From: Phyllosticta citribraziliensis
Taxonomy: Eukaryota
Reading direction: 5' to 3'
DNA length: 64,000 nt
NCBI RefSeq assembly: GCF_038025025.1
Contig: NW_027117344.1
Span: 1,984,001 to 2,048,000, forward strand
The translations under genes were made by a program, and so were the position numbers. Below are positions 10,888 through 34,336 of the stretch, piece by piece. The notes under the pieces were generated by a model that was not told the origin of the DNA, searched no databases, and saw nothing but the letters and a program-made list of their open reading frames with translations. Every line of letters begins with the position of its first letter. Positions within the stretch are counted from its first letter, which is position 1.

Positions 10888-12182
10888 ATGTCATATAATC
10901 CGTCTGGCCCGGTTTCGGTCACGAGGGTTGCGCAGCCGCTGGACCATTCTTTTGGCTTGAATGGACTTGGTCCTGACCATTCCCCTGGACCTCACGCCTT
11001 CTCCAACCACGCCCTCGACGAAGCTGTAAAGAAGCGCAAATCGTCCAAAGGAAGCATTTCGTCCCTTTCGTCTTTTGAACGGACGTCGACTACGCCGCAC
11101 ATGAGGTCTCTTTCTTTGGGGGAATCGAGCTCGATCTCTCCCAACTCTGACAAACGGCGCAACAAACTCGGTTATCATCGCACTTCTGTCGCGTGTGGTA
11201 TGTTCCCGTTCCCACTTTCCTCTTTTTGCTTGACACTGACATGGTTACAGGCCATTGCAGACGGAGGAAAATCAGATGCCTGTTGGCTCCTGACGACCCG
11301 CAAGGACGATGTTCAAACTGTATCCGGCTGAAAAAGGAGTGCAATTTTTACCCGGTGGAACAGCAAAACTCGAACGAGTCTCGAGCACAATCGGCGAAAA
11401 GAAGCAGTATTTCACATATCCCTTCATCGTCAACTTCTTCATCACCTCGTGGCTCCATTCCCACTGGACATGAACACTTCGAGGAGTACGGTTCTTTTCA
11501 ATCCATCCCTCCTGACGCACCACCTGGCTATCCAGTGCCCAATCACATGGATGGACCTGTAGATATTAAAGCTCATCACGGTGGTAGGTACTGACGCTCT
11601 CTTCGCAACATTTGCTGACTTGCGGCAGTGATTCCCCAATCTGAATTTCCATATTCCCCCTCGTTTGATTTTCAAGGCTGGAATCAAAACTATGCCGGAC
11701 ACACGCCGTCAGACGGACAATCCGACGCCTCTTCGATCGCCTACTGGTCCTCATCCGGGCCGCCGGTCTCGTCGGCTTCGCCTTTTGTTCACGATCCCAT
11801 GAGCATGCCCACGCAAATGGAGGCGCAAGTCCCTCCGCACCATTTCCCTGGACATGAGCAACCTGTCTGGCCCGGGTTGCAGAGATCAATGTCTTACGGC
11901 GGTCCGGAGACTTTTTCGCAAGATCCGCGGTTTCAAAATGGCCTTCCAGTGCATGGGCAACGACACTCGGCGCATGACATTCCGACCATGGAGCCTTCGC
12001 AGGACCCTGAGCACTTGAGTCACAGTCCAATGCCCCCGAATTGGCAACCTTTCGTAAGCGTACCTGAAGGAACACAGCCTGGCCCTGTACAGCCTTATAA
12101 TGGTCATTGGTACCCTGAGCCGCAAGGCCTTGGTTCGGTGGAGGAGGAACACAATCTTTCAACTCCTTATCGTCCATTTTAA
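10888..12182 (+). CDS. Zn(II)2Cys6 transcription factor with a short Pro/Gln/Ser-rich C-terminus
   Basis: The spliced product gives KRRNKLGYHRTSVACGHCRRRKIRCLLAPDDPQGRCSNCIRLKKECNF. Introns at 11198-11250 and 11584-11628. The start could alternatively be the in-frame ATG at 10789. Confidence 0.88.
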
Positions 12183-15100: not shown

Positions 15101-16257
15101 CCTGCTCCGGTTCCCTTGCCTTTCCTTGCCTGCGCGTACAATGTCTTTCATCCTTTCGCCCACGCCCGGTCGTAGCTTCTCTTCACTAACTCCGACAAGG
15201 CCTCCAGCAAGCCAAAGATGTCTTGCTCTTCTCATCCCATTTGTTTTTATGACCGCGTTTCCATTCTCAGCTCGCAACTGTGCAGACATAACGCGACCTG
15301 CCGAAACCATGCTCGCCAACCGCAGATATTCACAACGGAGAGACTGACACCAGTCGTGCACATGAATTCGAATAACACTCTTTATGTCGGAGGTCGGAGT
15401 CTGAGGGCTGAGCTTTTTTCCCTTTTCTGCTGGGAGTAGGGGTCGAACTGGCCTGGCATGAATAAGATCTACAAATGACTTGGTGCCAATCCTCAGTTGG
15501 CTCAGAGTTGCAAGTGTGAAGACCAGGACTTCGAGTCTCGCCAACCAATCAGAATATGCCTCGGGGCTTGGAACTGGGCAATTGCTTCTCAGCTGGGACA
15601 AAGAACCAGTATTCCTTGAATGTTTCCCAACTCAGCCTTTCATGAGAAGTTTTGGGCGACTAAAAAAAGTTGCTGCCCGTACCTGAGCAATTGTCATTCG
15701 ACAACCCAACTTGAGTACGGAAGTCCAATCTTCAGTCGGCCAGCCAGCAATCCATCACATCATGGTCAACTCTGTTCGCCAAAACGCCAGAGAGCTTGAT
15801 GGCTGCTTGAATTAACCTTGGGCTCGGCAACGCAGCGACAGGCCGGGGCCATCCGGCGCGTCGGGAGTTTTTCCAGGTCCCGACATGCAGTCGGTCTTTG
15901 GGCAGATGCGCCGACTTGTCCAACGAATCGGTGCTACAACAAAGGACGAAGCGATTGAATGCATATGGGTTCTCATGACGCAGACGGAGAATGTGGCCGA
16001 TCTTGGAGCATGTCTTGTGTCGTGGCACGCCTGGCCTGGAGCTGTCGACTTTGAGTTCGGAAGCGACGGGCGCACGCCGAGCGATTGTTAAGCTGCAGAC
16101 GAAGAGGTCAGCTAGCGAGTAAGGATGCAGCGAGTACTAAGTGGTGCATTTCTGCACCACCGGTCGGTCGGCCGGGTCAGCGTGCAATTGGTCGTCGACT
16201 GACTGACTACGGGCGGGATCTTTCGACTTCGCGTTTGCCTCTCGACGTTCCAGCGCA

Positions 16258-17342
16258 ATGGCCGAACCGAGGCAAGTTACTATACCCCCAAGCGGCGTCT
16301 GGTGAGTGCTGCCCTACTCTTTACTTTTGCTAGTCATTTGCATTTGCCTTCAGCTTGTCCGTACAGACATGATCCAGGGCTCTTTTCGGGCTTGATCTGC
16401 CTGCTGACGTCTGCCAACAGGGTACCCGCCATCACCTTCTACGACGACAGCGACGAACTCAGCCTCGATGCGCAGGCTCAATACTATCGCTACCTCTCCA
16501 CGACGGGCCTGGCGGGACTGGTCATCTTGGGAACCAACGCGGAAGCCTTCCTCCTGACGCCCGATGAGAGACGTACATTGATTGCGACGGCCAGGAAGGC
16601 TGTTGGGCCCGACTTTCCGATCATGGCTGGATGCGGTGCTCACAGCACCAAGCAAGTCCTTGGGCACATCAAGGATGCTGCCGACGCTGGTGCCAACTTC
16701 GCGCTGGTTCTTCCTCCTGCGTACTTTGGCAAAGCATCGACTCCGGCTGTGATTGAACGCTTTTTCGACTCGATTGCCGCCAAAAGCCCGTTGCCAATCG
16801 TCATTTACAATTTTCCCGGCGTCTGCAACGGGGTAGATCTGGACTCTGACCTCATTACGCGCTTGGCATTGAGGCACGAAAACATTGTGGGCGTGAAGTT
16901 GACCTGCGGATCTGTCGCCAAAATCACGCGTCTCTCCGCCGTTTTGCCCAAAGAGCGGTTTGCGACTTTTGGCGGTCAGAGTGATTTCTTGCTCGGTGCC
17001 CTCGCCAGCGGCGCCGCAGGATGCATTGCCGCCTTTGCCAATGTTGCGCCTAGAGTCGTCGTGAAAATCTATGACCTTCACCAAAGCGGCGAGAAAGAGG
17101 AAGCTTTCAAGTTGCATCAGAGCGCAGCTCTGGCTGAGCAGCCTTGCAAGCTAGGGATTGCGGCGACCAAGTACGCTGCTGCCATCTACACCGGAAAGAG
17201 AGCAGGAATCGCAAATGTCGAAAAGCTGGCAAAGCCAAGGGAGCCCTACACTGAGCCGTCAGAAGCCGTGAAGAAAACGGTACAGGAAACAATGGCGGAA
17301 ATCCAACAAATCGAGTCCCGGGTGGCGGAGTCTGGACGATGA
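16258..17342 (+). CDS. DHDPS/NAL-family class I pyruvate aldolase (HOGA1/GaaC-like superfamily)
   Basis: MAEPRQVTIPPSGVW|VPAITF spliced across intron 16302-16420. Motifs GLVILGTNAEA, PIVIYNFP (catalytic Tyr) and NIVGVKLT (Schiff-base Lys). Confidence 0.9.
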
Positions 17343-17957
17343 AGAGGCCAGGGGTGACTGTCTGGTCTCCAGTCTGGCTGCATCGAGGCCGATTTCCGGC
17401 CCCTTGATAGCACGCCGTCAACTCTCGGCTTTCTCAATTCCATTCTCCTTCAAGCAGTGGTACTCCATATGAAGCAAACCATCAGCTTGAGCCAATTGAT
17501 CTTTTGTGCCGTTCACCAGAGACGGAGACGTACCTTCAAACCCTCGTCTTGCGGCTTCCCAACGGACATCACGCCAAGGCGCGAGCTCGCTCCGCCGCAC
17601 ACTCCGGCCTCGCCATTTCAACGACCCGAAAGCACGCAGTCAGCGATGCAGGTGAGTCAATTGGAGTGACTGTTAGATGTGGAGTCGTTGAACTGGGGAA
17701 GAAAGGAAGCACGGCACGCCGCGAGGCCCCCGGCTCTCACTCGGAGAACAAAGCGCGCAGGCGAGCGCCGTAAAAAAAGTGGGAAAGAGTTTTCCAGGCA
17801 CAACATAAAGTCAGGAGGATACCCCTCCTCACGCCATCGTGTTGTTGTCCATTAAAGCCCGCCGCCTTGCCCCCGTGTTGACGGATTTTGAGCCGCATCT
17901 GTCGCATTCTTTTCCAACATCTTCCCTTGAGCCGCAGTCAGCCGCCATTTGCCGAAC

Positions 17958-19291
17958 ATGGGTTCTCTTCCGATCCCGGACTCTCGATTTGCCCATCTGG
18001 ACGAGTATCCTATGGATGAGGCGTTTATGATTATGCGAGACTTTGCTCTGGATGCTCATCCGCACAAAATCAGCTTGGGGGCTGGTGTCTACCGTGACAA
18101 TGAAGCGAAGCCGTGGATTTTGCCCAGCGTCCGCGAGGTAGGAATTTTTTTTCATCCCAAATTCATTGTCACTTATGAAAGACGTCCACCTGCCGTCAAC
18201 AGAATGAATACTGACCTGTTCAGGCTGAGCAACTCATCGTTCAAGACCCAAATACCGACCATGAATATCAACCCATGGCCGGCCATCCTCCTTTCATCCC
18301 ATTGGCGCAAGAACTCACCTTTGGCCCCCTCATGGCCTCGCTGAGCAACCGCATCGTCTCCTGCCAAACCATTTCGGGGACAGGTGCTTGTCACTTTGCT
18401 TTCCGATTCATCTCTGAAGTCACCTCAGCCAAGCGCGTCTGGATCAGCAATCCAACCTGGGGCAACCACCACCTTCTCTGGGACATTTCGGCGCCCCAAG
18501 TAAAGCAGCAGCTCTACCCCTACTACAACGCCAAGACGTGCTCGCTCGACTTTGAAGCCATGATTCAGACGCTCGACGCCGAGGCCCAGCCGGGCGACAT
18601 CATCCTGCTCCACGCCTGCGCGCACAACCCCACCGGAATCGACCCGACGCCCGAGCAATGGGCGGTCATTGCCGACGTGTGCGAGCGCAAGCAACTGTTC
18701 CCCCTCTTCGACTCTGCCTACCAGGGCTTCGCATCCGGCGACCTGGACCAAGACGCCTATGCCATCCGGCTCTTCGCCGAGCGCGGCTTCGAGCTGGCGG
18801 TGGCGCAGTCGTTCAGCAAAAACTTTGGGCTGTACGGGCAGCGCGTCGGAGCGCTGCACATAGTCGTGTCGCGCAGCGACGCAGTCCCGTCCACACAGTC
18901 GCATCTGACCAAGCTCGTGCGCGGCGAATTCAGCACAGCACCGGTGCACGGCGCGCGCATCGTATCTAGGATCTTGAGCGACGCGGCGCTGCGCAAGCAG
19001 TGGTACGGCGATCTGCAGGTCATGAGCAGCCGCCTCAAGGACATGCGCCGCGCGCTGTACGACGAGCTGCGCCGCCTGGGTACGCCCGGCTCCTGGGAGC
19101 ACATTGTCGACCAGATTGGCATGTTCAGCTACACTGGTCTCAACGAGAAGCAGGTCCGCCGCCTCCGCGATGAGCAGCACATGTACATGATGAGCTCTGG
19201 CCGCGCGAGCATCGCCGGACTCAACACGTCCAACGTGGCGGCGGCCGCGGCGGCCATCGATGCCGTCGTGCGCGCTGAGAAACAGGCTTAA
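17958..19291 (+). CDS. Aspartate aminotransferase family (class I PLP) paralogue
   Basis: Motifs KISLGAGVYRDNEAKPWILPSV, NPTWGNH, LHACAHNPTGIDPT, FDSAYQGFASG, SFSKNFGLYGQRVG (PLP Lys), QIGMFSYTGL and SGRASIAGL. Intron 18138-18223. Confidence 0.93.
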
Positions 19292-19408
19292 ACGCCGTCC
19301 AGCCCTCCTGCTGCGCCGAACTCGAGGCGCGTGACTGGCAGGAGGTCCTAAGCTCGTCTCGGATTCAGTCAACATTTCTTCTCGTCGAAAAGCGTTTCGC
19401 GTCGCATT

Positions 19409-20172
19409 CTGCATTGAAAGGAGTTTGTTCAGAGAGAAGGAAAGGAAAGTAGAGGAGGAAGGATACCCCCGCGGGTGAACAACGTCATCACAAGGTCTGT
19501 CGGTGCATAATTTTCTCTTCATGGTCATCAACATCATGTCTTACGTCTGCATCGAAAGGAGTCTGTTCACGTTGGGTTTCAACAGCATGGAAAAATAAAA
19601 CCAAAAAGTGTTGCATGGGGTTGGACGACGTCTCTTTTCGAGCAAGTTATCACAAGGTCTGTCGATGCAGCCAGCGACGCCGCTTTCCCTTTTCTTTTGG
19701 ACGTCTCGGCATTCGCCGGGACCCGTCCCACGTTATCTCGTTTTCGTCACCATCATAATCATCACTGCATTGGAAGGCGTTTGTTCGGGTCAGCAAGAGG
19801 AGGATGAGATGGAGAAGATACCCCCGACTGGACAGAGCATCACAAGGTCTGTCGATGTACACACCATGGCATCGGAAGGAATTGTTCACGGGACTTCAAT
19901 GTTTTTCTTTGCTTTCAAAGGCATGTCGACGTCGTTGCGGTGGCGTGCGCTTGCTGAGCCGTGGCGCTGCAGCGTGGCTGATCGTCTCGCCCTGCGATTC
20001 CGCAAGCGTGGATTCGGCGCCCTGGTGCCACGGTGGGGGAACGTTGTGGTGATGACTTCGCGAGCTGGACGGCGGGAGGAGTCTCCAGCGGCCGAGAACG
20101 AGCATCAGTCGTGGCGGCATGTAGACGTAGTACTGGTACCTGGACAAGTCAGCACAAGGTCAACCTAATGCA
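19409..20172 (+). ncRNA. Candidate structured ncRNA array: four A-arm/B-arm hairpin units (milRNA-precursor-like or tandem cis element)
   Basis: ATCACAAGGTCTGTCG is identical at 19487, 19649 and 19839, with a degenerate fourth copy at 20151. Partially complementary arms GCATYGRAAGG..TGTTC lie at 19411, 19549, 19767 and 19869. Stem variation is almost entirely G.U wobble on the + strand. Confidence 0.5.
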
Positions 20173-20750
20173 AGCATTCATTAAGCAGCAAGAAGCAAAA
20201 TAGGCGGCGGCGGCGGCGCTTTCCACCATGGCAGACCACTGTCTCGGGATAAATTCTTCATGGCGGGTTTTTTGCTTTTTCTTCTTCTCTTCAAGAGGCG
20301 CGGTGGCTTGTCTTGGCTCTTCGTGATCGTCTTGCCCTGCCTTCGGGGAATTTCCGCTGGCTTGTGTCCTCGCGTTCTTTGCTTTTCGCCCACCCACCCC
20401 TCGGACGTCGCATTTTGGCTGAATGCAGGGCTGCAGGTGCTAGCGGTCTGGGCACTTCCCACCCCCACGGTCCGGAAAGCATCACCGTCGTTGTGGCGCC
20501 CAATGATTGAAAGTACGTCGCGTGATTGGAGCTTGTGGTCGGCGGTCGGTCTGATTGGCTGGGAGTTGGTGAAGCAGTCGTCGTTACTTTGATGGAATCG
20601 TAAAAGTCAGTCGGGCATTACCAAATTGGATATGGAGAACCGGCGACCGTCGTGAGTCGTCAAGTGTTGGAAATGTCTAGTCCTTGTCGAAGGGTCCTCG
20701 ACTCGTGAAAAAAGGGTCTTTATACGTCGTGGTATATCGAATGTTACCCA

Positions 20751-23700
20751 TCAGTTCCCTGTCGCCATTGCTTCTCTTGCGCTCACACTCCCCTGCGCCC
20801 TGAAAAGATACGGACTCCGAATGTACTTCTCGTGCCTCCTGAATGTGCCTTCCTCCAGATCCACTGGCTCGGTCTCCTCCAAACTTCTATCCTTGCCCCA
20901 TCCTCCACCTCCAGGCGTCTGGACTACAATGCGATCACCCTTTTGCATGAGCGTTGTAGCCCTGCCTCCAAGATTGATGGTTCGCACGCTGCCGTCGTTT
21001 TCCTTCTTGATCCAAAGGTTGACACCTCGTGCACCTTCGCCACCGCCCGCCATGCCGTAGGGCGCGTTGACTCGGCGCTCGCTCAGGATGGAGACTTGCA
21101 TTGGCCGGCGTAGCTCAATGTCGCGGATGCAGCCGTCGCCGCCCCGACGCAGACCACAACCACCGCTGTTAGGTCGGATGCTGAAGCGATGCAAGAGAAC
21201 GGGGTAGCGCTTTTCAAAGACTTCGGGATCCGTCATGCTATGGAATGTTAGCTCGAATAAACCCAGTAGCATTGTAAATCTTACCGCGTGTTGGTGATGT
21301 GCGTGTGGACGCCGCTCTGGCCCTCCCAGTCGGCACCTGCACCGCTACCTCCTGCAATCGTCTCGTAGTATCCAAAGCCCTTGGTGATGTTGCCGCGCTC
21401 GTCACGCCCACCGTAGCCAAATGTCAGATTGTTACACGTGCCTTGGCTTGCGGCCGCAGCTCTGAAGGCCTTGAAAATCAAATCGACGACGCGCTGACTC
21501 GTCTCTACATTGCTTCCCACTGTTGCGGCCTTGAGGCTTGGTGAGAGCAGCGTGCCGTCGGGACAATACACCTCAATCGGCGTCAGGCAGCCTTGATTCA
21601 GGGGAATGTCGGAGCTAATCATGCAGCGCAGGCAGTAGATGATGCCCGAATACATGATTGCTGGAGGAGTGTTGAGGTTGTTGAAGGCCTCCGGGCCTGT
21701 GCCAGAGAAGTCAAACTTGGCGGAGCCGTCTTCGGGATTGATGGTAATCTTGAGCGCGAGCGGTGTGCCGTCATCCATGTAGTCGATTGCTTCCAGGGGC
21801 TGTCCGCGGAACCGAGTCGAAAAGGTCTTGAGGAGCTCACGCACAGACTCTTCCGCATTCTTTTGAATCGCTTCCATGTAGAAGCGGACGACAGGCCAAG
21901 TGTACTCGCGGACGAGTGAGGTAATGAGGTGGATTCCGCGGTTGTTGGCTGCAATGGCGGCTTTCAGGTCAGCAATGTTGTCGCGAAGCGTTCGAGTGCC
22001 AGAGCAGCCCGGATATTGCGAGGGGACGTCGTAGAGATGGTAGATGAGGCCCTGTTCGTCAAAGACGCCCTCCTTGACCATTTTGAAGGACTCGATGGCG
22101 GCCCCTTCTTGCCAAAGCTCGGTGCTGTTGGGCGGCATTGAGCCGGCTGAGATGCCGCCAATGTCGGCGTGATGGCCTCTATTCGCGACAAAAAAGAGAA
22201 TCTCCTGGGGATTCTTTTCGTCATCAAAGACGGGTGTGATGACTGTGAGATCTGGGAGATGGGTGCCACCGGCACAAGGGTGATTGCTCAAGATGACGTC
22301 TCCAGGCTTGAGCTCTCCTTTCTTGTAGCGGTTGGCTTGGTAAGAAATGGCAGTGCTCATCGACCCCAAGTGGCCTGGAATGTGAGGAGCATTTGCGACA
22401 AGACCACCAGTCGCTGAAAAGACTGCACAGCTGTAATCTAGCCGCTCCTTGATATTTGTCGATATCGAGGTCTTTTGAAGTGTTTGGCCCATCTGCGGAA
22501 TGGTTAGACTTGTAATCATCGAAAGAGATAAACATACCTGCTCCGCAACACTCATGAACCGATGTCCAAAGACACTCAACTGAATCGGATCAATGGCCTC
22601 GGTACTCACGGCCACCTTTTCCGTATCGAGCAACTCAATGACCAGATGCTCGTCTGTAATTGTCGCCTCGCTAGCCGGATCCAAAATAATGGTCTGCGTA
22701 GCATCAATAGCAACGGCCGGGCCCTTGAGCTTACAACCCTTGGGCAAATTCGCAATGCTGTAAACTGGCGAATCTACCCACCCGTCCTTTTCAAAGTAAA
22801 TCTGCCGAGTTGACTTTGCACTGGAAGGATCGACGTAGTTGTCCTTTTGAATCTTTTCCAATTGAGCAAGAGGAGTGGAGACGTGCAAGTCCATGGCTTT
22901 CCCAACACTGCGAACGCGTACATCGTCCACGAGTATATCGCGCGGTTGGGTGAAGCCAAACTCTCTGTGATGTCGCTGGACAAACGCTTGGGCAAAGTCG
23001 CCATCGGCGGGCTTGGAAATCATGAGCGCAGTGTCAGAGCCCTTGTAGCGCATATTCAGGAAATGTTCGTGCTCGACGCGGTTCTCGCGGAAGCCTTGTT
23101 TGGTGAGGGCGTCTGTTGCTTGCGAGCACAGCGACTCAAAGCGGCTTGCGATGCGTCCAGCAGCTTCCGGTCCGTACGCGACTGCTTCTGGTTCCTGCTT
23201 TTCGACCACGACATCCGCCAGTGCCATTCCGTAGGCCGAGAGAATACTGGAGAGCTGGTGAATTAGGACGCGCTTGATTCCAAGGTCTCGCGCAATGGCT
23301 GTCGCATGTTGTCCACCTGCTCCGCCAAAACAAGCCAGGTTGTGACTTGATGTCTCGAATCCTCTGCCCTCGCTGAGAGTGCGAATCGGACGGGTCATGG
23401 CCGCGTTCGCAACTTGAATGAAGCCCATGGCAACCTGTTCAGGAGTAAGCTTGTCGTCGCCATGCTTTTCAGCGTTGACGAGCTCTGTGAGTTGAATAAA
23501 TTTCTTCTTGACAACCTCTGAATCAAGAGGACGGGGAAAGTAGTCTGGAAGAATGCGGCCGAGAAAGTAGTTGGCGTCGGTGATGGTCAAGGGACCTCCC
23601 AAGCCATAGCAGGCAGGCCCAGGATTTGCCCCGGCGGATGATGGGCCGACCTTGAACAGTCCATTCTCCCAAAAGAGAATGGAACCGCCACCTGGACGAA

Positions 23701-24938
23701 GTCAGCAAATTGCACCAGATCTTGAACCAGCAGAGAATGCTCACCTGCTGCCACGGTATTAATGTCCAACTGGGGACTCTGAATTGTGACCTCTGCAGTC
23801 GTACTCTCAAACACGTGCTCCAGAGACCCGCCATATCTCGAAACGTCGGTGCTCGTGCCGCCCATGTCGAAACCCAGCACCGGTGTGCCTTCTTGGGGAT
23901 CAAAGCAGGTCTTTGCGTAGCCGACAACACCACCCGCAGGCCCTGATAGGATTGCCCGCAACCCTGTAAACTCGGTAAAAGGGGTAAGTCCGCCGTCGGA
24001 TTGGGAAAGCAACAGCTTCTTTGCATTGGCGCCCGTCAGTGCCCCCTTGAAGCCTTTCCGAAAGCTGTCGAGGTACTCTGCTGTAATGGGCGAGAGATAG
24101 GCATCTGCGGTCGCCGATTGCGCTCTTGGTACAATCTTGATCATGGGCTGGAGTTGTGAGGAGAGGGCAACCTTGAAGCCCATTCGTTGTGCAATCTTTC
24201 CAACCGCCAACTCGTGCTCAGGAAACGTAAATGAGTGCATGAGGGCGACGGCAATACTCCTGTAGCCTTGGTCCCAAAGAGTCTGGAGATCCTTCTCGAC
24301 GGCTTCATAATCTGGCGTCTTCAAGACTCGAAGTGGCTCGCCCGTGAGTCCGCGGACGAGTTGGGGGTCAGAATCAATTTTAACAGATGCTGGCTCAGGG
24401 TCTTCGGAGAAGCCCTCGACAGTCACCCGTTCATCGACTTCGACAACGGTTTCATAAAGGCGGTCGAGCTTGCGCACCGAGAGATCAAAGAGGTGCGGGC
24501 GCGCTTGATTTCCAATGACGAGAAGGTCCCGGAAGCCTTGGGTGATGAGGAGGGCTACGCGCTCTCCCTTGCGTTCCAGCAATGCACTGCTAAAGTTAGT
24601 AGATTGTCGCCAGAAGATATCGGTCCAGCCTACTTTGTTGCCACAGTAGTGCCCATACGGATCGACTCGACTGGATCCAAATCTATGGGTTCCCCTCGAG
24701 GGATACTTTTGCCCGCGGCAATTTCCAGAATTTGACGGATTCCTTCGGTCGGCGCATCAGGATACTCTGACGAGACTGAAAGGAGTTTGAGGACAACATC
24801 TTCATTTCGTCCAGGAATACGTGCCCAGCTTTTGATGGTCAGTTTGAGTCAGCATGGTGTCGAGCACACTTACAAGTCACAAAAGGTTCCTCCTCGGTCA
24901 ATTGCTATCCGCACACCTTCCTGGGCAATAGAGGGCAT
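20751..24938 (-). CDS. OXP1: 5-oxoprolinase (ATP-hydrolysing), fused hydantoinase A/B family
   Basis: Motifs IAIDRGGTFCD, ILSGPAGGVVG, FDMGGTSTDVSRY, FGGAGGQHA, STNIKERLDYSCA, HPCAGGTHLPD, RGHHADIGG, YYETIAGGSGAG and TPGGGGWG. Introns 24829-24873, 24587-24633, 23692-23744, 22493-22537 and 21238-21284 restore one reading frame. The family is clear, but orthology to housekeeping OXP1 is not established. Confidence 0.93.
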
Positions 24939-25588
24939 GTTGGGTTATCGAAATGTTTTTCGAGCGGTCATTAAAGTTGGAGTGTCGGTGTCTTTATAGA
25001 TTGGTCTTGCAGGTCTGGAGGAATGGAGGGTGCTCCGCTGACGACTTGTATCTATGGAGCCCTCTTCGGCAAGAGGTCACGCAGCCCTCGAACCCCTCCT
25101 TGAAGACACGGGACGGGCTTTGATACAAAGCCGTTGCCCAATAGACCGCCATTGTCAGCATATCGCCATAGAAAGCTAGGTGTTTTGGTGGGAGAGCGGT
25201 CCGGTTGATCGCCTCAAGTTCCCGATACACGTGAAAGGCTTCGGCTGGATCGGCCGATAGCCGTAGTTGCCGACTAAGCTTCCAGTCCTGGTCAGTTTTG
25301 AAGCAACGCACTCTACTCCACTTCCCCAACTTTGAAGCTGCCCATGATGTGGAGAAGTCTGCTGAGTATCTTAGTGGTGATTGTTGAGCGTTCGATTCCT
25401 CATGACTCTCCCATGCTCGAAAGAAACAGCTCAATATGCTAATCTGCTCCGTTGAACCATTGCTTCCAAGCCACATCTGTGGTTTTGAACGATTGCTTCC
25501 TAAACGCGCAGCCATCGTGACGAACGGTGGTCCTCTGGGTCCGGCAGCAATAAACGGTTGGCAATTCTCCTCAGAAACCCCGTCATTC

Positions 25589-27010
25589 TTACTCAGTGTG
25601 CTTTTGTATCCACTCATCCTCTACCAGCTCCCGGGCAGAGCTGCGTTTCTCTGGCTCCCACTGCAGCATCTTACGCATCAAGCGCAAGAAACACTCCCTG
25701 TCTTCTCCTTCGAGGGATGTTTCCCTACGCTCGAGCGGTGTGGATTCTGGTATCGGGATTCCTGCGCAAAAGTCACCTGTAAAAATGCGCGGTCAACGAA
25801 CAGTAAAATTCCTGGATCAGCATCCTAAAAGCTAGGTGTGCAACTCACCAGCATCGTTAAAGAAATTGCTCTTCAGGTTCGCTCGGGCAAGCAAATTCGG
25901 CGGTGGAGGCCCGAGGAGGGCTATCATCTCAGCAAGATGAGCCCGTCCCCGATACAGGTTCAATTCGGGATCCTGGCCGGTGAACAGGTGCTCGCCTTCG
26001 AAGGCATCCCAGACCTGCGGATGGAAAGAGAGGTGTAAGCCAGAGCACAGTAATTCAAGGTATCAACACTTACCATGCACCCCACGTTCCATATGTCGAC
26101 GCTGTAAGTCCACGAGATGTCCAAGATGACTTCTGGCGCTCGATAGACATCCGGTTGAATATCTTCCCGATGCTCGGCTTCGTCATCCAGCGGCATCGCC
26201 GATCCAAGGTCACACAGCACAGGCGCACCAAAGTCTCTGGGCATATTCAACTTGCGGGAGAGGTAGATGATTTGCCCATCGAGTTGCTTCCTCGGGCTTG
26301 GCTCCTCCAGCTCCTCTCGTTCGAAAGTTTTGAGTACGGGACTATCTGCTCCGAGCAAGACGTTGGCCTCCTTGATGTCAGTATGCGCGACGTGGCACTC
26401 TGTGTGAAGAAAGTCCAGGGCCTGGAAGAGGCGCTTGAGCACAAAGGCCACGACCGGCTCCGGCAATCTCCTCACGGGGTTCCGATGCCTTATTTCAAGC
26501 AAACTCTCCCAGAGCGGTGGATGCACGAGGCATCGATGCCGCCCTTTGGGCCCGTCAACGTAAAACGAGTCTAGCAGCGAGCGGACGGCACTGCGGCCCG
26601 GGTGGTCCTTGGCTGCGGTCTCAATGCGCTTGTAAACGTCGAGCTCATTTTCCAGCTCACTCCCCGTGGACACGGAATGGATGAAGATCTTGAGGGCAAC
26701 GTGGCGACATTGGCTAGGAATGTGAATTGAGCGACAGGCCATGCAGGTAGGGAACCGATACTGACATGAGATCCCGTGCTAGCCACACGGTCGAGGTGAC
26801 TCCAAATCCCAGCTTCCCGACGATCTGGAAGCGGTCGCGAAGAATTTCACCGATCCGGACAGGATAGTATCGTGACGCGACGTAGTTTGGAACGGTCTCC
26901 TCTTCCACCTTCTGGTTTGCAGAAATGAGGAAGAAATCCTTGTTGGAAAAGGTGAGCGGTTTCCATGTGCGACTGAAAAGCGGCCTCCATGCGCGACGGA
27001 GAATCGACAT
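25589..27010 (-). CDS. SRPK-like (CMGC) Ser/Thr protein kinase of the fungal expanded family
   Basis: Motifs YYPVRIGE..KLGFGVTSTVWLARDL, HVALKI, HTDIKEAN, DLG, YRAPEVIL, VDIWNVG, HLAEMIALLGPPP and KMLQWEPEKR. Introns 26714-26765, 26015-26073 and 25777-25848 give an intact frame. Confidence 0.9.
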
Positions 27011-27679
27011 GGCAACAACTGTGTTAGGTGTGATGGCATCAAAAGTAGTGTTGCAATTGGTCGAAGGCTCAGTCGCAAAAGTCGTGGCGCGTACAATCCT
27101 ACGGTTGTGTAAGTTGGGGCGAATGCTCCCTAGACCTATTCTCCCACGGGCTTGAATGCTCTTGACTGACCTCAACCATCGTTGTGGCTACGACTTTTGC
27201 GATCAAGCCTTGGTCCAAGGGCAAAAGGCAGATTTTCGACCGTGCCCCTCTAGCCGATCCCCTGTGTAACAAATAAGCGCCAAAGCCGTTGCACGCTTCC
27301 CCAGCTTTCAAACTGTCTATGATGAGGAATGCTCCGGGTACGATGGTGGTTGAACGAATTCTCCGTGTTGTTCCCCGCAACTTGAGGACCTAGTCGTCCG
27401 AGGCACTGACGCAACTGACTCGGTGCATCTCCGAGACCGTGGTGGCTCCGAAGCTTGGATGGCTGGACTCTGCGGCGTGGACCTTCTCAAATGGAGCGTC
27501 TGCAATCTCTGGCTCATCCCAACATCACTATCAGCTGTGCCATCTATGCAGCTCCCAGGGTCTGCTGATAACATGAGGCTATAAGCATCGTGGCTCGTGA
27601 GTCTTGATTTCTTTTTCGCACCAACGGGTTTTTATCCGACGGTTGCAAATTCTGTCTTGTCCACGCCTGTGCAGCATCA

Positions 27680-29413
27680 ATGGCTTCACAGGAGGACGTT
27701 TTACAGAGTCCCAAGGGGAGTGAGACAGGGTCCAGGATCGTCGAGGCGGCCCACATCGACCCTGTCAAGGAAAGGAAGATGATGAGGAAGTTCGACGTAA
27801 GTTTGTCCTAGAGCAAGTCGTGCTTTTTCAAGTTGCGATTTCTAACTGAGTGACAGGTGTTTGCCGTCGGGTGCCTAGGCATACTGTACATGCTGGCCAA
27901 CCTAGACAGGTAAAGTGAACTTTTCGTACTGATTCTCGGACAGGAACGCGGTGTTTACACTCACCAGGAGCAACATTGGCAATGCCCGGATCGCAGGCAT
28001 GCCCGAGGACCTTGGTCTGGTTGGTAACCAATACGGTGATGCGGTGACTCTGCTCTATGCCACCTATGTGCCTCTTGAGGCGCCTGTTGCCGTTTTGCTC
28101 AAAATCATTGGTCCCAAACATTTGCTTTCGTTTTGCGCCGTTGCCTGGGGGCTAATCTGCCTCTGCACTGGGTTCATTCAAAATTGGCAAGGGTTGTATA
28201 CTTGCAGGTTGCTCCTGGGTCTTTTTGAAGCCGGCTTGATTCCTTGCATCAACGTCTACCTGGGCATGGTGTACAACAAGAATGAAAGAGGCAAGAGGTA
28301 CGAGGACCATTCAGCTGCGCAGGGGCAATGCTCACGCGTCCAGGTCGTCCGTCATTTTCGCATTTAGCGCCGTCGCGTCGGCATTTGGTGGAATCCTGGC
28401 GTACGGGTTGACCCAAATAAATACTTCGACCTACTTTACCTCGTGGAGAGCCCTCTTCATCTTTGAAGGGGCATTGACGCTCGCGTGCGCGCCTCTCTTC
28501 TTTTGGGTCTTTCCAAGCGCTCCGCGGACGGCCTGGTTCCTGGACGACGAAGAAAAGGAATTGATGAAGCTCCGCTACGAGCTCAACCCGTACTCTGGAA
28601 TCGACGAAGAGTTTACGTGGGCCGCCGTCATCGAAGCGCTGACCGATCCCAAGTGGTATGCGTTTTGGGTTTTCCAATTCTGCGTCGACGTCTCGCTGTA
28701 CGGCTTCACGACATTTCTGCCCTCCATCATCCAAGGGCTGGGCTACAGCTCGGTCAACGCCCAGCTGTTGACGGTGCCCATCTACTTTTGGGGGACGTGT
28801 ACGTTTCTCTTCACGGCGTACATGTCTGATCGGACGCAGAATCGAGGATATTGGATTGCTTGGCCAATCGCGTGCCTGATTATCGGTTACGCAATCCTCA
28901 TCTCAGTGGATTCGGTGGGGGTGCGATATTTTGCCTGTTTCAGTAAGCCAGCCACTGCCCCAGAGCGAAAAGAATAATCTGACAAGGGCGCGCAGTGGCG
29001 GTAATGGGCATCTATCCGACGACTGGCATGAGCATGATGTGGCTGCAGGATAACGCGGCTCAGCACTTTAAACGCGCCACCATGGTTGGCGGCGCGTTGA
29101 CGCTGGGAAATACGGCTGGAGTGGCCGTAGGCAAGTGGCCTGTGCCGGATTGGGGTGATTGTCCGCGATTGCTAACCGCATTGCAGGGCAGATCTTCACG
29201 ACAGAGTCGGGCCCACGCTTCATCAAGGGTCTGTCGATATCGCTGGGGTTGGCCGTGGTGGCGCTGGCCATGGTTGCGAGTCTGATGATTGGGATGGCGG
29301 CGGCCAACCGGCGGCGGGCAGTAGCGCTGCGCAAAGCGTCAGAGGCAGGGCGTCCGATCAGGCCACGCCCGGAGAAGGGCGACATGGATTTGCACTTTGT
29401 GTACGGATTGTAA
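27680..29413 (+). CDS. MFS transporter, anion:cation symporter (Dal5/Tna1-like) family
   Basis: Motifs ERKMMRKFD, LANLDRSNIGNARIAGM, RLLLGLFEAG, FGGILAYG, WRALFIFEG, FLPSIIQGLGYS..AQLLTVP, and a C-terminal GDMDLHFVYGL. Multiple introns, the last apparently GC-AG (29131-29186). Confidence 0.9.
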
Positions 29414-29718
29414 ATAAGGTGGAGGCAAGGATGCGGTGGTTGACGATACGGGGGCGGCGAAAGAGGAAATCCGGCGGAGCAGTTGGCCGGATGTCTTGTC
29501 GTCAAGTGTCGTGTCGCGGTGCGGGGAGGACCGAGAACCTCATCGTGAGCCACTCAGCTCCGTGATGACTCGGACGTATCAACTTCGGCATGCGCTATCG
29601 CCCTATCACGCACGCCCTGTTGATTGCGGAGAAGCTGCCCTGATGCGAGACGCCGCCGCTGCCTCTTTTTCTGCCATTCAACCAGAGTATAAGCCGTTCA
29701 AGTCCTGCAAACGCCGTC

Positions 29719-32283
29719 ATGGAGGCCCAGATCACCTGCAAAAAGACCAAGCAGCCCGCCAGAATGTGCAGCCCGGAAGAGGCCCAGGAACCGCCCACCA
29801 AGAAGCTGCGGAGGAGCTACGTCGCGTACGTTTCCCCAGACTCCGAAGTCGGACCCGTTGCTCAACACCAGCGACCAACAATTGCCTGGACCCTGTACTG
29901 ACTGCTCCAGCTGCCATCGCTGCCACTCGCACAAGATCAAATGCTCCGGCGAAAAGCCCTGCCGCAGCTGCAGCAAGTCCAACAACTCGGCCCATTGCGT
30001 CTACCCAGTCCGAGATCGGAAGGTTGTCATTTCTGAGAGGTTCGCCGCCAGCAATCCTCCGATTGGCAAACGCTGACCGTTCCAGCTATCTGAAGAAACT
30101 CGAACAAGAGAATGCCGCCTTCAAGCACAAGACCCCCTCGTCCACGGCCGACACACCCCCTAGTTCCGAGGATTCTAAGCCCCTCTCCCACCAAGATCCC
30201 GGCGAAGACACAGACGTCGACGTTGCCAGCGTAGATGTCGCCAATCCCCTGCTCGAGGATCATGCCAACCAGCGTCCAACTTCGTTTGACCGAATACCAA
30301 AACCCCTCTATCTCGGCGGCGCTGCGTGCACCGCCTTTGGCACTCGACTGCGCTACCATGTCAAGGGAGAAGACATGGCTCCGCCCCCACGTCGCGTCGT
30401 GTTTTACAAACACCGCGGACTGCTGCGCATCGCCAACACCGAGTTCCAATTGCCAAATAAAACTTATGCCCGGATGTTGGTGCAGGTTGTTTTGCGCTTC
30501 ATTGGCTCGGACTACCACCTCATCCAGAGAAAGAGCTTCATGAGGCGCCTGGACGAGACATATTCGGCCCAGACTCACAATGATCCTGTTTTTCTCTGCA
30601 GAGTCTTTGTCGTCTTTGCCCTCGGCGAGCTATACTCGAAAAAGACTGCCGTGGCAGGAAACAGGAGGTCGGTTCCCGGGACGTCATTCTTCTTGCAGGC
30701 CATGAACCTTTTTCAGGACTTGCACGAAGAAGCGGATGTCGACTACATTGAGACGTTGCTGGTCATGGTATGTGTAAATCAATTCAATATGGACGATGGA
30801 CAAAGCTGACTTCAAGCAGTCATTCTACTCGCATGCTCTCAACAGAAAGAACAGTGCTTACACCTACGCTGGTCTGGCTCTCCGTCTCAGCCTGACTCTT
30901 GGTCTCCATCGAAATATTACCTACGACAAGAACACTAGTGCAATTGAAATCGAGAACCGGCGGCGTGTTTGGTGGACCGTGTACACTTTTGACCGCCTTT
31001 GCAGCTCCAAACTTGGCCATCCGGTCATGATTAGGGACGAGGACATCGATGCGCCATATCCTTCCGTAGAGGGCTTGTCTCCGGAAGAGCGGGACGAGTT
31101 CCTGGATGTTGACCAGCTTTGTGCCAACATCAAACTCGCACAAATAACCGGCAACATCTTGAACCTCATATACTCCATCCCAGGAGCGCAACACGAGGTC
31201 AACTTCGTCCGGAACGTGCACAAAATCTTGACCAGCTTGAAGGAGTGGGATTCAACGTTGCCCCCTAGCTTGAGGCTAGATCACACAGCAACACCTCCCT
31301 ACAAGTCACGTTCTGTAGCCTCTCTACGGCTGCATTTTAATCAGGTAAGCTACACCCGACACCGTCAAACACTCCCGTCGCTAATTTTGCAGTGTATTAT
31401 GCTTACGACGCGTCCGATTCTCCTTTATGTTTTCAAATACCATGTTCGCCCTGCAGGAACAGCTTCTTCTCCTAACACCACTCGGCCCCTCTCGCCCATG
31501 ACCACCGCCCTGTCCGAGGCCTGCATTCACGCAGCCCGCAACTCGAACAAACTTCTCGCACAGCTCTGGATAGACGGAGCAATAGCCACCTTCGGCTACT
31601 TTGACGCGCACTACATCTTCAGCTCGACAATCGTGCTCCTCATGGCCAACATCCTCAACCCCTCGGAGAGCGACAAGGACGCCATTGACCTGGCGTGGTC
31701 ACTGCTGCAGTCCATGGCCGACGACGGCAACCTACCCGCCAGCGAGTACTGGGAGCGGCTGGCCTTGCTGCAAAAGGACCTCGACGACATGTGTGGCGTC
31801 AACAGTCCGTCGGATGACCCGAGCAGCGCCTCTCGTGGCAACGTCATGGCGGCCATGCAGACACCGCCGCAACGCAAGGCATTCGCACAACACGGCCTGA
31901 AGCTGGAATCGCACCTCTCGCCACCGCACACATCAGCTGGCCCGCAATCCAACGCGCTCGGCCAACAAGAAGCAGGCGCTTCCGGCACAGCGGCGGCTCC
32001 GGCAGTATCCACTCTGCTCAAGAGCTTGTCGGCGACCAACGCCGCCGCTGGCAACCCAGACGCACAAGCGGACGGCGCCGCAGCGGCAGCGTCACCAGCA
32101 GCGTACAGTCTCCTCGGCGAGGCAGCAGGAGCGCCGCTGGACGACCCGTACATTCAGGATTTCCTGACGCATCCGGATACGGAGTGGAGCCCGGGGACGC
32201 TGGGCATGGCGGGCGAGGGCTCGGTGCCGTGGGGCTTTGCGTGGGAGGCGGGGGAGCTGCAGGGAGGTTTTTCAAGGCTGTAG
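29719..32283 (+). CDS. Zn(II)2Cys6 transcription factor with a fungal TF middle-homology region (Put3-like architecture)
   Basis: Spliced RRSYVA|CHRCHSHKIKCSGEKPCRSCSKSNNSAHCVYPVRDRKVVISE|SYLKKLEQEN. Also YLGGAACTAF, ALRLSLTLGLHR and ENRRRVWWTVYTFDRLCSSKLGHP. Confidence 0.9.
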
Positions 32284-34336
32284 AAGCCAGCCTGCCGTTG
32301 TGATCTTTGTTGAATACGCATTTCTGGGAGGGATTAGCACCGAGGGAAAATCGCACCACAAGGAAAATGTTGAGCGTCAAAAGCTCAAAACAGCGAGAAG
32401 ATGAGAATGGGATGGCCATGTCCCGCATTATATACCTCGCTCTGGCATTGGCGTTAGTGGTGATGGTCCACATGCAGTCGGACCGGTGGTCGCGTTGCCG
32501 AATAATATAGACAGACCTACATGTATGATGTCGTTTCCATGCTGCAATTGATTCGTGTAGTGGAGGCCTCTCTGGCAACATGGTCCCGAGCCCCAACGAG
32601 GCCATGGTGTTATCGCACACATGATCTGAATGAGTAGCAGCCTTCCTGCCTGCCTTGCCGATCGACATGTTCGGCATCTTTGTGGCGGTTGGACAGGTCG
32701 CGTGCCGAGGGAGGGAGATGCGCTGCTGACGCGTGAGGATGGAGTTGGAGATTCATGCCAGTAAGTGGGAGGGTAAAGTGGATTCTGTGCGACTCAGACA
32801 GTGCGCATTCGAGCGTTCTCGCATCGATGGAGTGATAAGAAGCATTGAACCAACTGAGGAGCATTCAAGCTCCTAAGCTTTGAGTGAAGCGGCTATGGTT
32901 GGAGCATCAAACCTCGGTACCTTTGAAGCTTGGTGCACTCATCGGTGTCCTCCCCAGCCTGATAGCATGAAAGTGGAATGGTATCTTGCTGCGACTACGC
33001 TGCAGCGCGGGCCGATGTTTTGCATGGCCCAAACAATCTGCACCCAGCCCGCATCCACATGAAGAAATGCAGAGCATCAGACGGCGTCCGATTGCATGGC
33101 GTCGCGTTGCGTCATGCGTGCCTGAGCTGCCGTGGGCTGAGCTCCCTTGCTGACGTGCATTAGGTACCTCGATGTACCTGCAGCCTGACTTGACGACAGC
33201 CCACAGCTCTCTCCTAGCTCATCGATCGAGCAATGACAGCGACATGACTTGACCGGCGGCACCAAAACAAGATGGAGAACGGCGACGCGTAACGGTGGCC
33301 GTAAACAGGGGCGCAGCGTCGCCTTGGTAGGCCATCAGCTTGCTCGCACCTCGCAACTTGCTCGCAGCCAGACCATCAGTGGCGAGGAGCCGACAAGACC
33401 GAAATGGAAACACGTCGACGAGGGAGACGCTGCTGGTGCTGAGCTGGCCGCTGATCGTCACGTCAATGGGATAAGGGGGGTCCCTCGTAGGTAGGGCTGG
33501 CGGGCTGGGTTCGCCGGCCTCCGCTGGCTGGCCTCATGTTGCACCTCGCTGGCTTGCTGGCCTCTTGTCCACTGCGCATGTTCAGCACCCAGGGTGGCCG
33601 GTGTGAGAGTCTGGTGTTGGCGGTCAACCCAAAAAAGACAAGACTGCTTCGCGGCACGGGCTCCCCTGCTCATCAAGGGGGCAGAGTCAGTGCAGCTTGC
33701 TGGCGGCTGGGGTCTCTGAACGAATCATTCTGCCGTCGAAAAAGTGGTCGCAGGTCGCACGCGCAAGCAAGAGGAGATCAAGCAGATCAGGTTCCCCAAT
33801 GGCGTCAATGATGGTTTGGACGGTCGCGGCGTTCTGATGGCATGTTTTGGTCCAGGGCGAGCGTGGGGCAGACTGGCGGTGGGCAGGACGAGACGCTGCT
33901 GTGTGTTGTTTCATCAACAACACCCCCGCCACTTACCAGCCAGTGCCAGCCAGCGAGGCCAGCGCGAGCGGAACACGGCGGCGCGGCGGCCGTGACCATG
34001 ATCCGCTGGAGACTGGGGACTGAGTGGCCGGGGCGGGAGCTGATGATTTACTTGGCTGCTTGCTTCACCGCTGTTGTACCTTTTTTTTAATTCGTTCGTC
34101 ATCAGGATCCTCACCCCTCTTCTTTCTCCATATTTCCTGAACGCCGTCTTTTGTTCCAGAAGTTCAGTCTCTCATCTTTTTCTGCTCGTCAATCGCCCTT
34201 CAGTCGGAGCAATCGCGCCGTCTGTCTTCGTTTCTCGACCAAGCGACGATAGACTTTGTCGACTACGACGCACAAATCGGACCAACCATACGTACCGGCA
34301 CCCTCTCTCGCGACGACGGTCGTGGCAGTACCCACC

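Follow-up and report, generated by a model that had tools for sequence, protein, structure and literature searches.

The Locus and Its Genes

In this study, we examined a 64,000-nt stretch of DNA from the citrus-associated fungus Phyllosticta citribraziliensis (assembly GCF_038025025.1, contig NW_027117344.1, positions 1,984,001 to 2,048,000 of the forward strand), here called the window, in which a reading of the letters alone (the original prediction) had proposed that the genes at 16258-32283 form an undescribed catabolic cluster. Pfam searches of stop-to-stop open reading frames (ORFs), taken together with RNA contigs, resolve this interval into six transcribed genes, its left boundary being the ATG of an aldolase (16258) and its right boundary the stop codon of a transcriptional regulator (32283). 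Five are those originally named, on the strands given for them: a class I pyruvate aldolase of the dihydrodipicolinate synthase (DHDPS) family (16258..17342, +), an aspartate aminotransferase (AAT) paralogue (17958..19291, +), a fused eukaryotic-type ATP-dependent 5-oxoprolinase/lactamase (20751..24938, -), a major facilitator superfamily (MFS) permease of the anion:cation symporter type (27680..29414, +), and a Zn2Cys6 transcription factor (29719..32283, +). For all five, Pfam domains, open spliced models, and RNA contigs agree. The list was nonetheless incomplete, an SRPK-like protein kinase (25589..27010, -) between oxoprolinase and permease having been overlooked.

Contigs from four public RNA runs were aligned to 15001-34000, two of the runs (X1 and X2) representing one organism in two studies. 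The X1 and X2 contigs skip introns with canonical GT..AG ends and are therefore transcripts. Fifteen splice joints of X1 and X2 are listed, with GT..AG or CT..AC ends, and 27 further joints occur beyond these; 14 of the 15 serve as introns in our gene models, which combine RNA joints with canonical splice sites and require an open frame, and the fifteenth (27099-27170) lies in the 5' leader of the kinase. In X5, an RNA library from a plant metagenome, spliced contigs that are mostly 85-95% identical to the window extend over 16112-32053 and represent a relative's aldolase, AAT, oxoprolinase, kinase, permease, and regulator; since these are spliced contigs in a plant RNA library, the gene set is expressed in plant material.

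Family and Active Site of the Aldolase

The aldolase (321 aa) has a single intron at 16302-16420, seen in X1 and X5, and its Pfam match was made on the ORF 16203-17342; P. citribraziliensis proteins of 321 aa and 415 aa at NCBI are 100% identical to the exons of the aldolase and of the AAT, respectively. PF00701, the DHDPS family, matches with an E-value of 4.6e-40 over profile positions 9-286 of 289, so that the domain spans the whole protein and places it among the DHDPS/N-acetylneuraminate-lyase class I aldolases. As originally argued, it is not a true DHDPS: against TIGR00674, the DapA model, it scores 120.1 bits versus a cut-off of 206.15, its loop reads Gly-Thr-Asn-Ala-Glu where DapA has Thr-Thr in G-X-X-G-E, and a Thr stands at the place of DHDPS Ala163. 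The nearest solved structure is PDB 3qfe (E 1.7e-129 over exon residues 2-299), which shares the Thr-Asn and Lys-Leu-Thr-Cys motifs with the window protein and, being titled "putative dihydrodipicolinate synthase family protein", gives a fold but no stated activity. Orthologues with 66-75% identity are found in Dothideomycetes, Sordariomycetes, and Eurotiomycetes.

The active site was compared with that of human 4-hydroxy-2-oxoglutarate aldolase, HOGA1, by alignment to structures 3s5n and 3s5o. According to the HOGA1 study, Lys196 is the nucleophile and Tyr168 forms a proton relay with Ser77, while Asn78 and Ser198 are unique to HOGA and bind the distal carboxylate and the 4-hydroxyl, their places in Escherichia coli DHDPS being taken by Thr and Ala (PMC3188589). 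In the window protein, Thr53, Asn54, Tyr116, Tyr144, Lys174, Thr176, and Gly200 correspond to HOGA1 Ser77, Asn78, Tyr140, Tyr168, Lys196, Ser198, and Gly222, and all seven are unchanged in 20 of 20 orthologues. Thus, the Schiff-base lysine (Lys174) and the relay (Tyr144 and Thr53) are in place; of the substrate-binding residues Asn54 and Gly200 are kept, and Ser198 is replaced by Thr176 with retention of the hydroxyl. The two Thr residues at the Ser77 and Ser198 places are a difference from the human enzyme, in which, as reported in the same study, changing the relay Ser to Thr lowered kcat, whereas S198T kept kcat with a 7-fold higher KM (PMC3188589). Overall, the active site fits 4-hydroxy-2-oxoglutarate as judged from the aligned residues. 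The protein scores about equally well against HOGA1 (E 6e-28) and true DapA (E 2e-28), and these scores therefore do not establish orthology to HOGA1; the label "4-hydroxy-2-oxoglutarate aldolase" carried by relatives in UniRef and at JGI is automatic naming. Human HOGA1 is mitochondrial, whereas inspection by eye finds no evident N-terminal targeting extension in the window aldolase.

Aminotransferase and Oxoprolinase, Each with a Probable Second Copy

The AAT paralogue (415 aa; intron 18138-18223, seen in X1, X2, and X5; ORF 18215-19291) matches Aminotran_1_2 (PF00155, E 1.6e-68) and scores 384.1 bits against NCBIfam PRK09257 (cut-off 377), which makes it an AspC/TyrB-type aminotransferase. 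Its best PDB matches are 6ezl and the yeast AAT 1yaa, and relative to the latter it keeps Ser-Phe-Ser-Lys-Asn, the Arg of Val-Arg-Gly, and Ser-Gly-Arg-Ala-Ser-Ile-Ala-Gly, stretches that we take to hold the lysine binding pyridoxal phosphate and the two arginines for the substrate carboxylates. A contig found in all four RNA runs matches this gene over 19088-19157 only (~70 nt) and then diverges; provided that the contigs come from the same organism, a second AAT gene is transcribed.

The oxoprolinase (1316 aa, with domains over 20751-24756) has five introns (21238-21284, 22493-22537, 23692-23744, 24587-24633, and 24829-24873), of which X1 contigs confirm three as joints; parts of the gene are not covered by X2, a gap to which we attach no weight. 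Hydant_A_N, Hydantoinase_A, Hydant_A_C, and Hydantoinase_B (best E 8.3e-152) follow in one chain, this fusion of A and B domains being the architecture of eukaryotic 5-oxoprolinases. In this respect the protein resembles yeast OXP1 and human OPLAH, each a single chain of ~1300 aa with the same four domains, and departs from them in being clustered with permease, regulator, AAT, and aldolase, in being one of at least two transcribed family members, and in belonging to a family that forms several clades within Pezizomycotina. Among PDB entries, an N-methylhydantoinase matches best (E 2.4e-52), and no solved 5-oxoprolinase of this type is among the matches.

The second member of the family was recognized in X1 and X2 contigs that match the clustered gene at two short conserved places only, ending at 21347 and 24656, and whose loose ends translate to oxoprolinase-like sequence unlike that of the clustered gene. 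If these contigs, too, come from the same organism, the fungus transcribes a second oxoprolinase-family gene. Seven of 120 close relatives and 2 of 150 representatives carry the C-terminal motif of its transcript, and none in either set carries the N-terminal motif. Since second AAT and second oxoprolinase transcripts exist, the clustered copies are extra ones, and the clustered oxoprolinase is not the sole housekeeping copy, a circumstance on which the original prediction depended. In the Pezizomycotina tree of oxoprolinases several clades mix classes, one of 24 rows uniting Chaetothyriales, Aspergillus, Hypocreales, Colletotrichum, and Parastagonospora, a pattern that suggests old duplications, transfers, or both.

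Linkage of the Enzyme Genes in Other Fungi

Metagenome contigs were scanned with an alignment of the 20 aldolase orthologues. Relatives are encoded in 282 stretches, of which the best 80 were kept; these amount to 62 distinct loci (numbered with the prefix L) with 595 kb of flanking DNA in total, 26 of them having at least 10 kb of flank. Partner genes were sought in the 62 loci by tblastn with the window proteins. An AAT lies near the aldolase orthologue in six loci (L003, L014, L043, L047, L048, and L053) and an oxoprolinase, 67-73% identical to that of the window, in three (L025, L038, and L053), against chance expectations of ~0.09 and ~0.07 loci; the corresponding Poisson probabilities, 5e-10 and 5e-5, are rough, for they assume five AAT-family and four oxoprolinase-family genes per 35 Mb and ignore the relatedness of loci. 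The complete trio of enzyme genes is seen in the window, its Phyllosticta relatives (where aldolase and AAT share one contig), and L053 only; otherwise the linkage is pairwise by lineage. Gene order and orientation differ among the window, L025, L038, and L053.

In their tree, the aldolases appear to make up a single orthologous group, over which the linked loci are scattered in separate clades. The AATs beside the aldolase belong to several AAT branches: L003 and L014 contribute a long branch closest to E. coli AspC, L043, L047, and L048 a second one closest to animal AATs, and the AATs of L053 and the window fall within a large group of fungal paralogues. This topology suggests that an AAT was recruited repeatedly next to the aldolase, which is what a transaminase-aldolase couple predicts.

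Independently of these loci, protein searches pair oxoprolinase and AAT as well. The two bear consecutive locus tags, on contigs of equal length, in four genomes from two classes, namely Fonsecaea multimorphosa (Z520_03841/03842), Cladophialophora immunda (CLAIMM_12316/12317), Anthostomella pinea (Uu.00g079180/079190), and Diaporthe amygdali (N8I77_005171/005172), and the four oxoprolinases share a clade with those of the window, L025, and L038. In Biscogniauxia mediterranea, Xylariomycetidae sp. FL0641, Pleurostoma richardsiae, Cryphonectria parasitica, and Mariannaea sp. the evidence goes only as far as contigs of the same size. Co-clustering in other genomes, the first point on which the original prediction was to be judged, is thus real for pairs of genes (six and three of the 62 loci, and four pairs of tags) and mostly absent for the full set. 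Taken together, these comparisons support a functional link among the three enzyme genes.

Other Neighbors of the Aldolase

A different partner is found in one clade of loci (L003, L011, L014, L018, and L044), where an aldehyde dehydrogenase of the eukaryotic 1-pyrroline-5-carboxylate (P5C) dehydrogenase type forms a divergent gene pair with the aldolase; the two that were compared with TIGR01236 reach 610.3 (L018) and 603.0 bits (L003) versus a cut-off of 613.6. An amino-acid permease comes next in L003, L011, L014, and L018, followed in L003 and L014 by the AAT and, beyond it, by a sarcosine-oxidase-like FAD enzyme (L003, 7820-20333; L014, 2742-14816). The gene set of L003 and L014 corresponds to the mammalian hydroxyproline enzymes from the P5C-dehydrogenase step on, with a candidate oxidase in front, and from its gene content looks like a fungal cluster for the whole mammalian-type hydroxyproline pathway; no description of such a fungal cluster was found in the literature. 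The context of P5C dehydrogenase, permease, and AAT points to 4-hydroxy-2-oxoglutarate as the likely substrate of the aldolase. The loci give no ground for a common hydroxyproline oxidase, since the FAD enzymes of L003 and L014 are orthologues of one another and those of L025, L053, and L079 are not orthologous to them.

The HOGA reaction yields glyoxylate. A 2-hydroxyacid dehydrogenase occurs in both L053 and L025 (52% identity over 136 available residues), with glyoxylate/hydroxypyruvate reductases among its best matches, and L055 has one as well. In L025, a peptidase/deacylase of family M20 and a membrane dipeptidase of family M19 (874-2025 and 11368-12610) flank the oxoprolinase-regulator-aldolase group, which hints at supply from peptides or N-acyl amino acids.

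These neighbors bring in an alternative, namely that the locus serves hydroxyproline breakdown with the oxoprolinase as a repair or salvage enzyme, reopening 4-hydroxy-5-oxoproline that forms spontaneously, and not as the entry for an imported lactam. The chemistry exists, 4-hydroxyglutamate having been seen to turn into 4-hydroxy-5-oxoproline in the work-up of urine samples (PMC13117884). L053 combines oxoprolinase with aldolase, AAT, an FAD-oxidase-type gene, and the 2-hydroxyacid dehydrogenase, and L025 has the same set minus the AAT. Yet the anion-type permease adjoining the oxoprolinase in the window and L053 suits uptake, the Pfam scan of the window finds neither a proline/hydroxyproline oxidase nor a P5C dehydrogenase, and the oxoprolinase is missing from all five P5C-dehydrogenase-type loci. 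We regard a repair role as quite improbable.

Permease, Regulator, Kinase, and Flanks

The permease (486 aa, MFS_1 at 27933-28977) has introns at 27797-27856, 27910-27967, 28298-28343, 28943-28995, and 29131-29186, the two 3'-most being seen in X1 and X2; the last has the boundary GC..AG, not GT..AG, and its joint is backed by X1, X2, and X5. Its best model is TIGR00893, the D-galactonate-transporter subfamily, with 83.2 and 90 bits, values that stay below the cut-off of 395 because exon pieces alone were scored. Dal5 and Tna1, to which the permease had been likened, we take to be members of the anion:cation symporter family. An orthologue with 58% identity adjoins the oxoprolinase in L053.

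In the regulator (777 aa; Zn_clus 29912-30037, Fungal_trans 30778-32283), all four introns (29826-29910, 30040-30085, 30768-30819, and 31345-31392) are seen in X1, X2, and X5. Zn_clus scores 37.6 bits on the second exon (cut-off 21) and Fungal_trans 91.2 bits (E 7.4e-26, cut-off 23), so that the protein has both domains of a Zn2Cys6 transcription factor. Orthologues with 53-55% identity lie between oxoprolinase and aldolase in L025 and L038.

The kinase (412 aa; Pkinase E 1.4e-14, found on the ORF fragment 25963-26778) has three introns in its coding sequence (25777-25848, 26015-26073, and 26714-26765) besides the one in its leader, all four joints being present in X1 and X2. The kinase and the permease diverge from a common intergenic region, and no counterpart of the kinase is present in any of the 62 related loci. 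Though inside the cluster, it is probably not a member and looks like an insertion.

The spacers on either side had been called gene-poor. They are without Pfam matches, but this does not establish a scarcity of genes, as X1 and X2 contigs cover 15001-16300 and 33387-34000. Upstream of the aldolase this cover is unspliced, one X2 contig of 2282 nt extends past 15001, and no ORF of 15001-16300 has a Pfam match; the transcript could be non-coding or unannotated. About 5 kb upstream of the aldolase, a second Zn2Cys6 ORF (11151-11591, +; Zn_clus E 6.9e-06) has no fungal transcription factor domain downstream of it. Neither this ORF nor the other flanking ORFs were retained as cluster members, no counterpart being found in the 62 related loci. 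A secondary-metabolite cluster was likewise rejected, the Pfam scan of the window giving no synthase within or beside the gene group.

A Proposed Pathway and Its Alternatives

The substrate of a class I pyruvate aldolase is a 4-hydroxy-2-oxo acid, the product of an AAT is a 2-oxo acid formed from the matching amino acid, and an oxoprolinase produces a glutamate from a 5-oxoproline; a chain starting from 4-hydroxy-5-oxoproline is therefore the only simple way to join the three. In this chain, the OXP1/OPLAH-type ATP-dependent lactamase would open 4-hydroxy-5-oxoproline, or a 4-substituted relative, to 4-hydroxyglutamate; the AAT paralogue would hand the amino group to a 2-oxo acid, yielding 4-hydroxy-2-oxoglutarate; and the HOGA1-like class I aldolase would split the latter into pyruvate and glyoxylate. 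The anion-type MFS permease would import the lactam, an acid without a free amine for which such a carrier would be suited, and the Zn2Cys6 factor would turn the cluster genes on. The lactam is a real compound, given its formation from 4-hydroxyglutamate in sample work-up (PMC13117884). What is observed are the genes, their families and transcription, the HOGA1-like residues, and the recurrent linkage; we infer the sequence of reactions, which lactam is used, its import by the permease, and the control by the regulator. A catabolic cluster of this kind, with three enzymes in one pathway for a 4-hydroxylated 5-oxoproline, is the reading that we tentatively favor, at a confidence that stops a little short of even. 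As a scheme it is that of the original prediction, which gains from the linkage and from the HOGA1-like active site and loses by the fact that most aldolase loci are unclustered.

Several observations weigh against it. None of the partner genes is present in 46 of the 62 aldolase loci, many of which are short; where flanks reach 10 kb or more (26 loci), AAT and/or oxoprolinase are present in six and neither in 20, and in the 19 longer loci without partners the neighbors are mostly unrelated housekeeping genes. Roughly 15 of the ~24 species found in both the oxoprolinase and the AAT lists give no sign of linkage, and the contig with the aldolase differs in size from that with oxoprolinase and AAT in Anthostomella, Cryphonectria, Xylariomycetidae sp. 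FL0641, and Mariannaea. The aldolase-linked oxoprolinases are split between two clades of their family, that of L053 lying apart from the clade of the window. The clustered oxoprolinase itself is very close to named 5-oxoprolinases, with no apparent sign in its sequence of an altered substrate: its 120 listed relatives are 70-99% identical over the 402-aa exon, and many are named 5-oxoprolinase or hydantoinase. No shared promoter motif emerges from a scan of the five upstream regions for CGG/CCG pairs at spacings of 0-12, none of the spacings being present in all five; CGG-N9-CCG occurs in three of the five regions with 26 occurrences in the window, and CGG-N8-CCG in three of the five with 33. 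Contig depth is flat in all RNA runs and so uninformative on co-regulation; as all runs are assembled contigs with flat depth, the genes cannot be ranked by expression. To these points are added the yeast unit and the aldolase lineage with an enolase-superfamily dehydratase, both described below.

Part of this evidence would be accounted for by two adjoining modules, or by an AAT shared between them: permease, oxoprolinase, regulator, and AAT for the use of plain 5-oxoproline, and AAT with the HOGA-like aldolase as the terminal pair of hydroxyproline breakdown. The oxoprolinase would then act on ordinary 5-oxoproline, as its identity to named 5-oxoprolinases would lead one to expect, and the AAT would carry glutamate to 2-oxoglutarate. 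Given the different contig of the aldolase, the oxoprolinase-AAT pair stands without it in the Sordariomycetes listed above, and five loci (L003, L014, L043, L047, and L048) have the aldolase-AAT pair without an oxoprolinase. In Saccharomyces cerevisiae, moreover, the published descriptions of the genes of Region B place an OXP1 orthologue with a TNA1-like permease and two regulators and list neither AAT nor aldolase among them (PMC12157680, PMC13447093). Two modules do not, however, explain why oxoprolinase, regulator, and aldolase are joined in L025 and L038, with no AAT in the DNA fetched (for L025, 10 kb on each side), nor why the window and L053 hold all three enzyme genes in differing orders; and the second oxoprolinase-family transcript means that a housekeeping copy may already serve 5-oxoproline. 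We consider this arrangement the main rival, though less likely than not.

The aldolase might, alternatively, take 2-keto-3-deoxy sugar acids as substrates, as GaaC/LGA1 or YagE do, its proximity to AAT and oxoprolinase being metabolically meaningless. Such a role would agree with one lineage of seven of the 62 loci (L007, L010, L015, L016, L021, L031, and L041), in which the aldolase occurs with an MFS permease, in six of the seven with an enolase-superfamily dehydratase, and in four with a short-chain dehydrogenase; it would agree as well with the E-values that do not separate HOGA1 from DapA. The best match of the dehydratase, which is also present in L070 and L075, is glucarate dehydratase, at 245 bits versus a cut-off of 828.7. 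Dehydration of a pentaric acid would itself yield 4-hydroxy-2-oxoglutarate, however, so that the dehydratase context is compatible with a HOGA role and, on grounds of chemical identity, may represent a third route to the aldolase substrate. Against a sugar acid also stand the AATs of different branches beside the aldolase in six of the 62 loci, the P5C-dehydrogenase-type neighbors in five (four with an amino-acid permease and two with an AAT), and the Asn and hydroxyl residue at the two HOGA1 sites responsible for binding the substrate's distal carboxylate and 4-hydroxyl. The original prediction had named a sugar-acid aldolase as an outcome that would count against it; the HOGA1-like residues and the P5C-dehydrogenase context favor 4-hydroxy-2-oxoglutarate, and we retain a sugar-acid role as a very improbable outcome.

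Returning to the 4-hydroxy-5-oxoproline pathway, a broader version may be entertained for Pezizomycotina at large. No oxoprolinase is found in the five P5C-dehydrogenase-type loci and no such dehydrogenase in the four places where an oxoprolinase is linked to the aldolase; in the loci examined the two never occur together beside the aldolase, and the oxoprolinase may stand in the dehydrogenase's stead. There would then be a second, lactam-based entry to the end of hydroxyproline and 4-hydroxyglutamate breakdown, in which an ATP-dependent oxoprolinase paralogue replaces P5C dehydrogenase and supplies 4-hydroxyglutamate to a fungal HOGA by way of a dedicated AAT, the permease being the first fungal (hydroxy)pyroglutamate transporter and the Zn2Cys6 factor its sensor. 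In this full form the proposal is speculative, and we would sooner expect it to fail than to hold.

Relation to Known Systems and Significance

The end steps of the mammalian hydroxyproline pathway (GOT2, HOGA1, and GRHPR) offer the closest parallel, with an AAT-family transaminase, a DHDPS-family class I aldolase that keeps the HOGA1 residues apart from the two changes of Ser to Thr, and, in the related fungal loci, P5C-dehydrogenase-type and glyoxylate-reductase-like genes in addition. Unlike the mammalian genes, the fungal ones are clustered, and entry in the window would be by an ATP-dependent lactamase, not by proline dehydrogenase and P5C dehydrogenase. NCBIfam caprolactamase models are the best matches of the window oxoprolinase, far below their cut-offs. 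In the bacterial caprolactam pathway, an aminotransferase takes the product of the caprolactamase CapAB onward. CapAB is reported to be an ATP-dependent lactamase of the hydantoinase/oxoprolinase family that converts a lactam into an amino acid (PMC8453981). That system differs from the window in that its lactamase consists of two subunits and is not a single fused chain, its lactam ring has seven members, the pathway lacks an aldolase step, and the host is bacterial. A third comparison is with Region B of S. cerevisiae ("Ty7"), which was acquired from Zygosaccharomyces and whose function is still described as largely uncharted (PMC12157680, PMC13447093). Going by its description there, the OXP1 orthologue adjoins a TNA1-like or D-galactonate-transporter-like permease and zinc-cluster-type regulators, as in the window; Region B, in turn, contains a flocculin gene and is mobile in S. 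cerevisiae (PMC12157680, PMC13447093).

Full-text literature searches, with most subscription journals outside their scope, found no fungal hydroxyproline or 4-hydroxyglutamate pathway, no fungal HOGA, and no cluster joining oxoprolinase, AAT, and aldolase, in agreement with the original prediction, which knew of no characterized fungal pathway with this gene set. A full-text search on the names of the 4-hydroxylated lactam returned work on its synthesis or on human urine only. For Aspergillus fumigatus, slow growth on hydroxyproline as sole nitrogen source has been shown (PMC2526178). Each of the enzymes belongs to a known family; it is their combination that may be new.

If the proposed pathway is correct, fungi would have a defined route for hydroxyproline-type ring compounds, for which hydroxyproline-rich proteins of plant cell walls and collagen would be plausible sources in plant- and animal-associated species. 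A strongly conserved fungal aldolase, with a structure (3qfe) but no known activity, would gain a function, and oxoprolinase paralogues would prove to be catabolic entry enzymes too, beyond the glutathione cycle. The permease would become a candidate transporter of the 5-oxoproline type, of interest as the yeast 5-oxoproline transporter is, in the wording of a 2026 paper, "not known" (PMC13398684). Finally, the cluster would provide a lead on the unexplained oxoprolinase-permease-regulator unit of yeast Region B.

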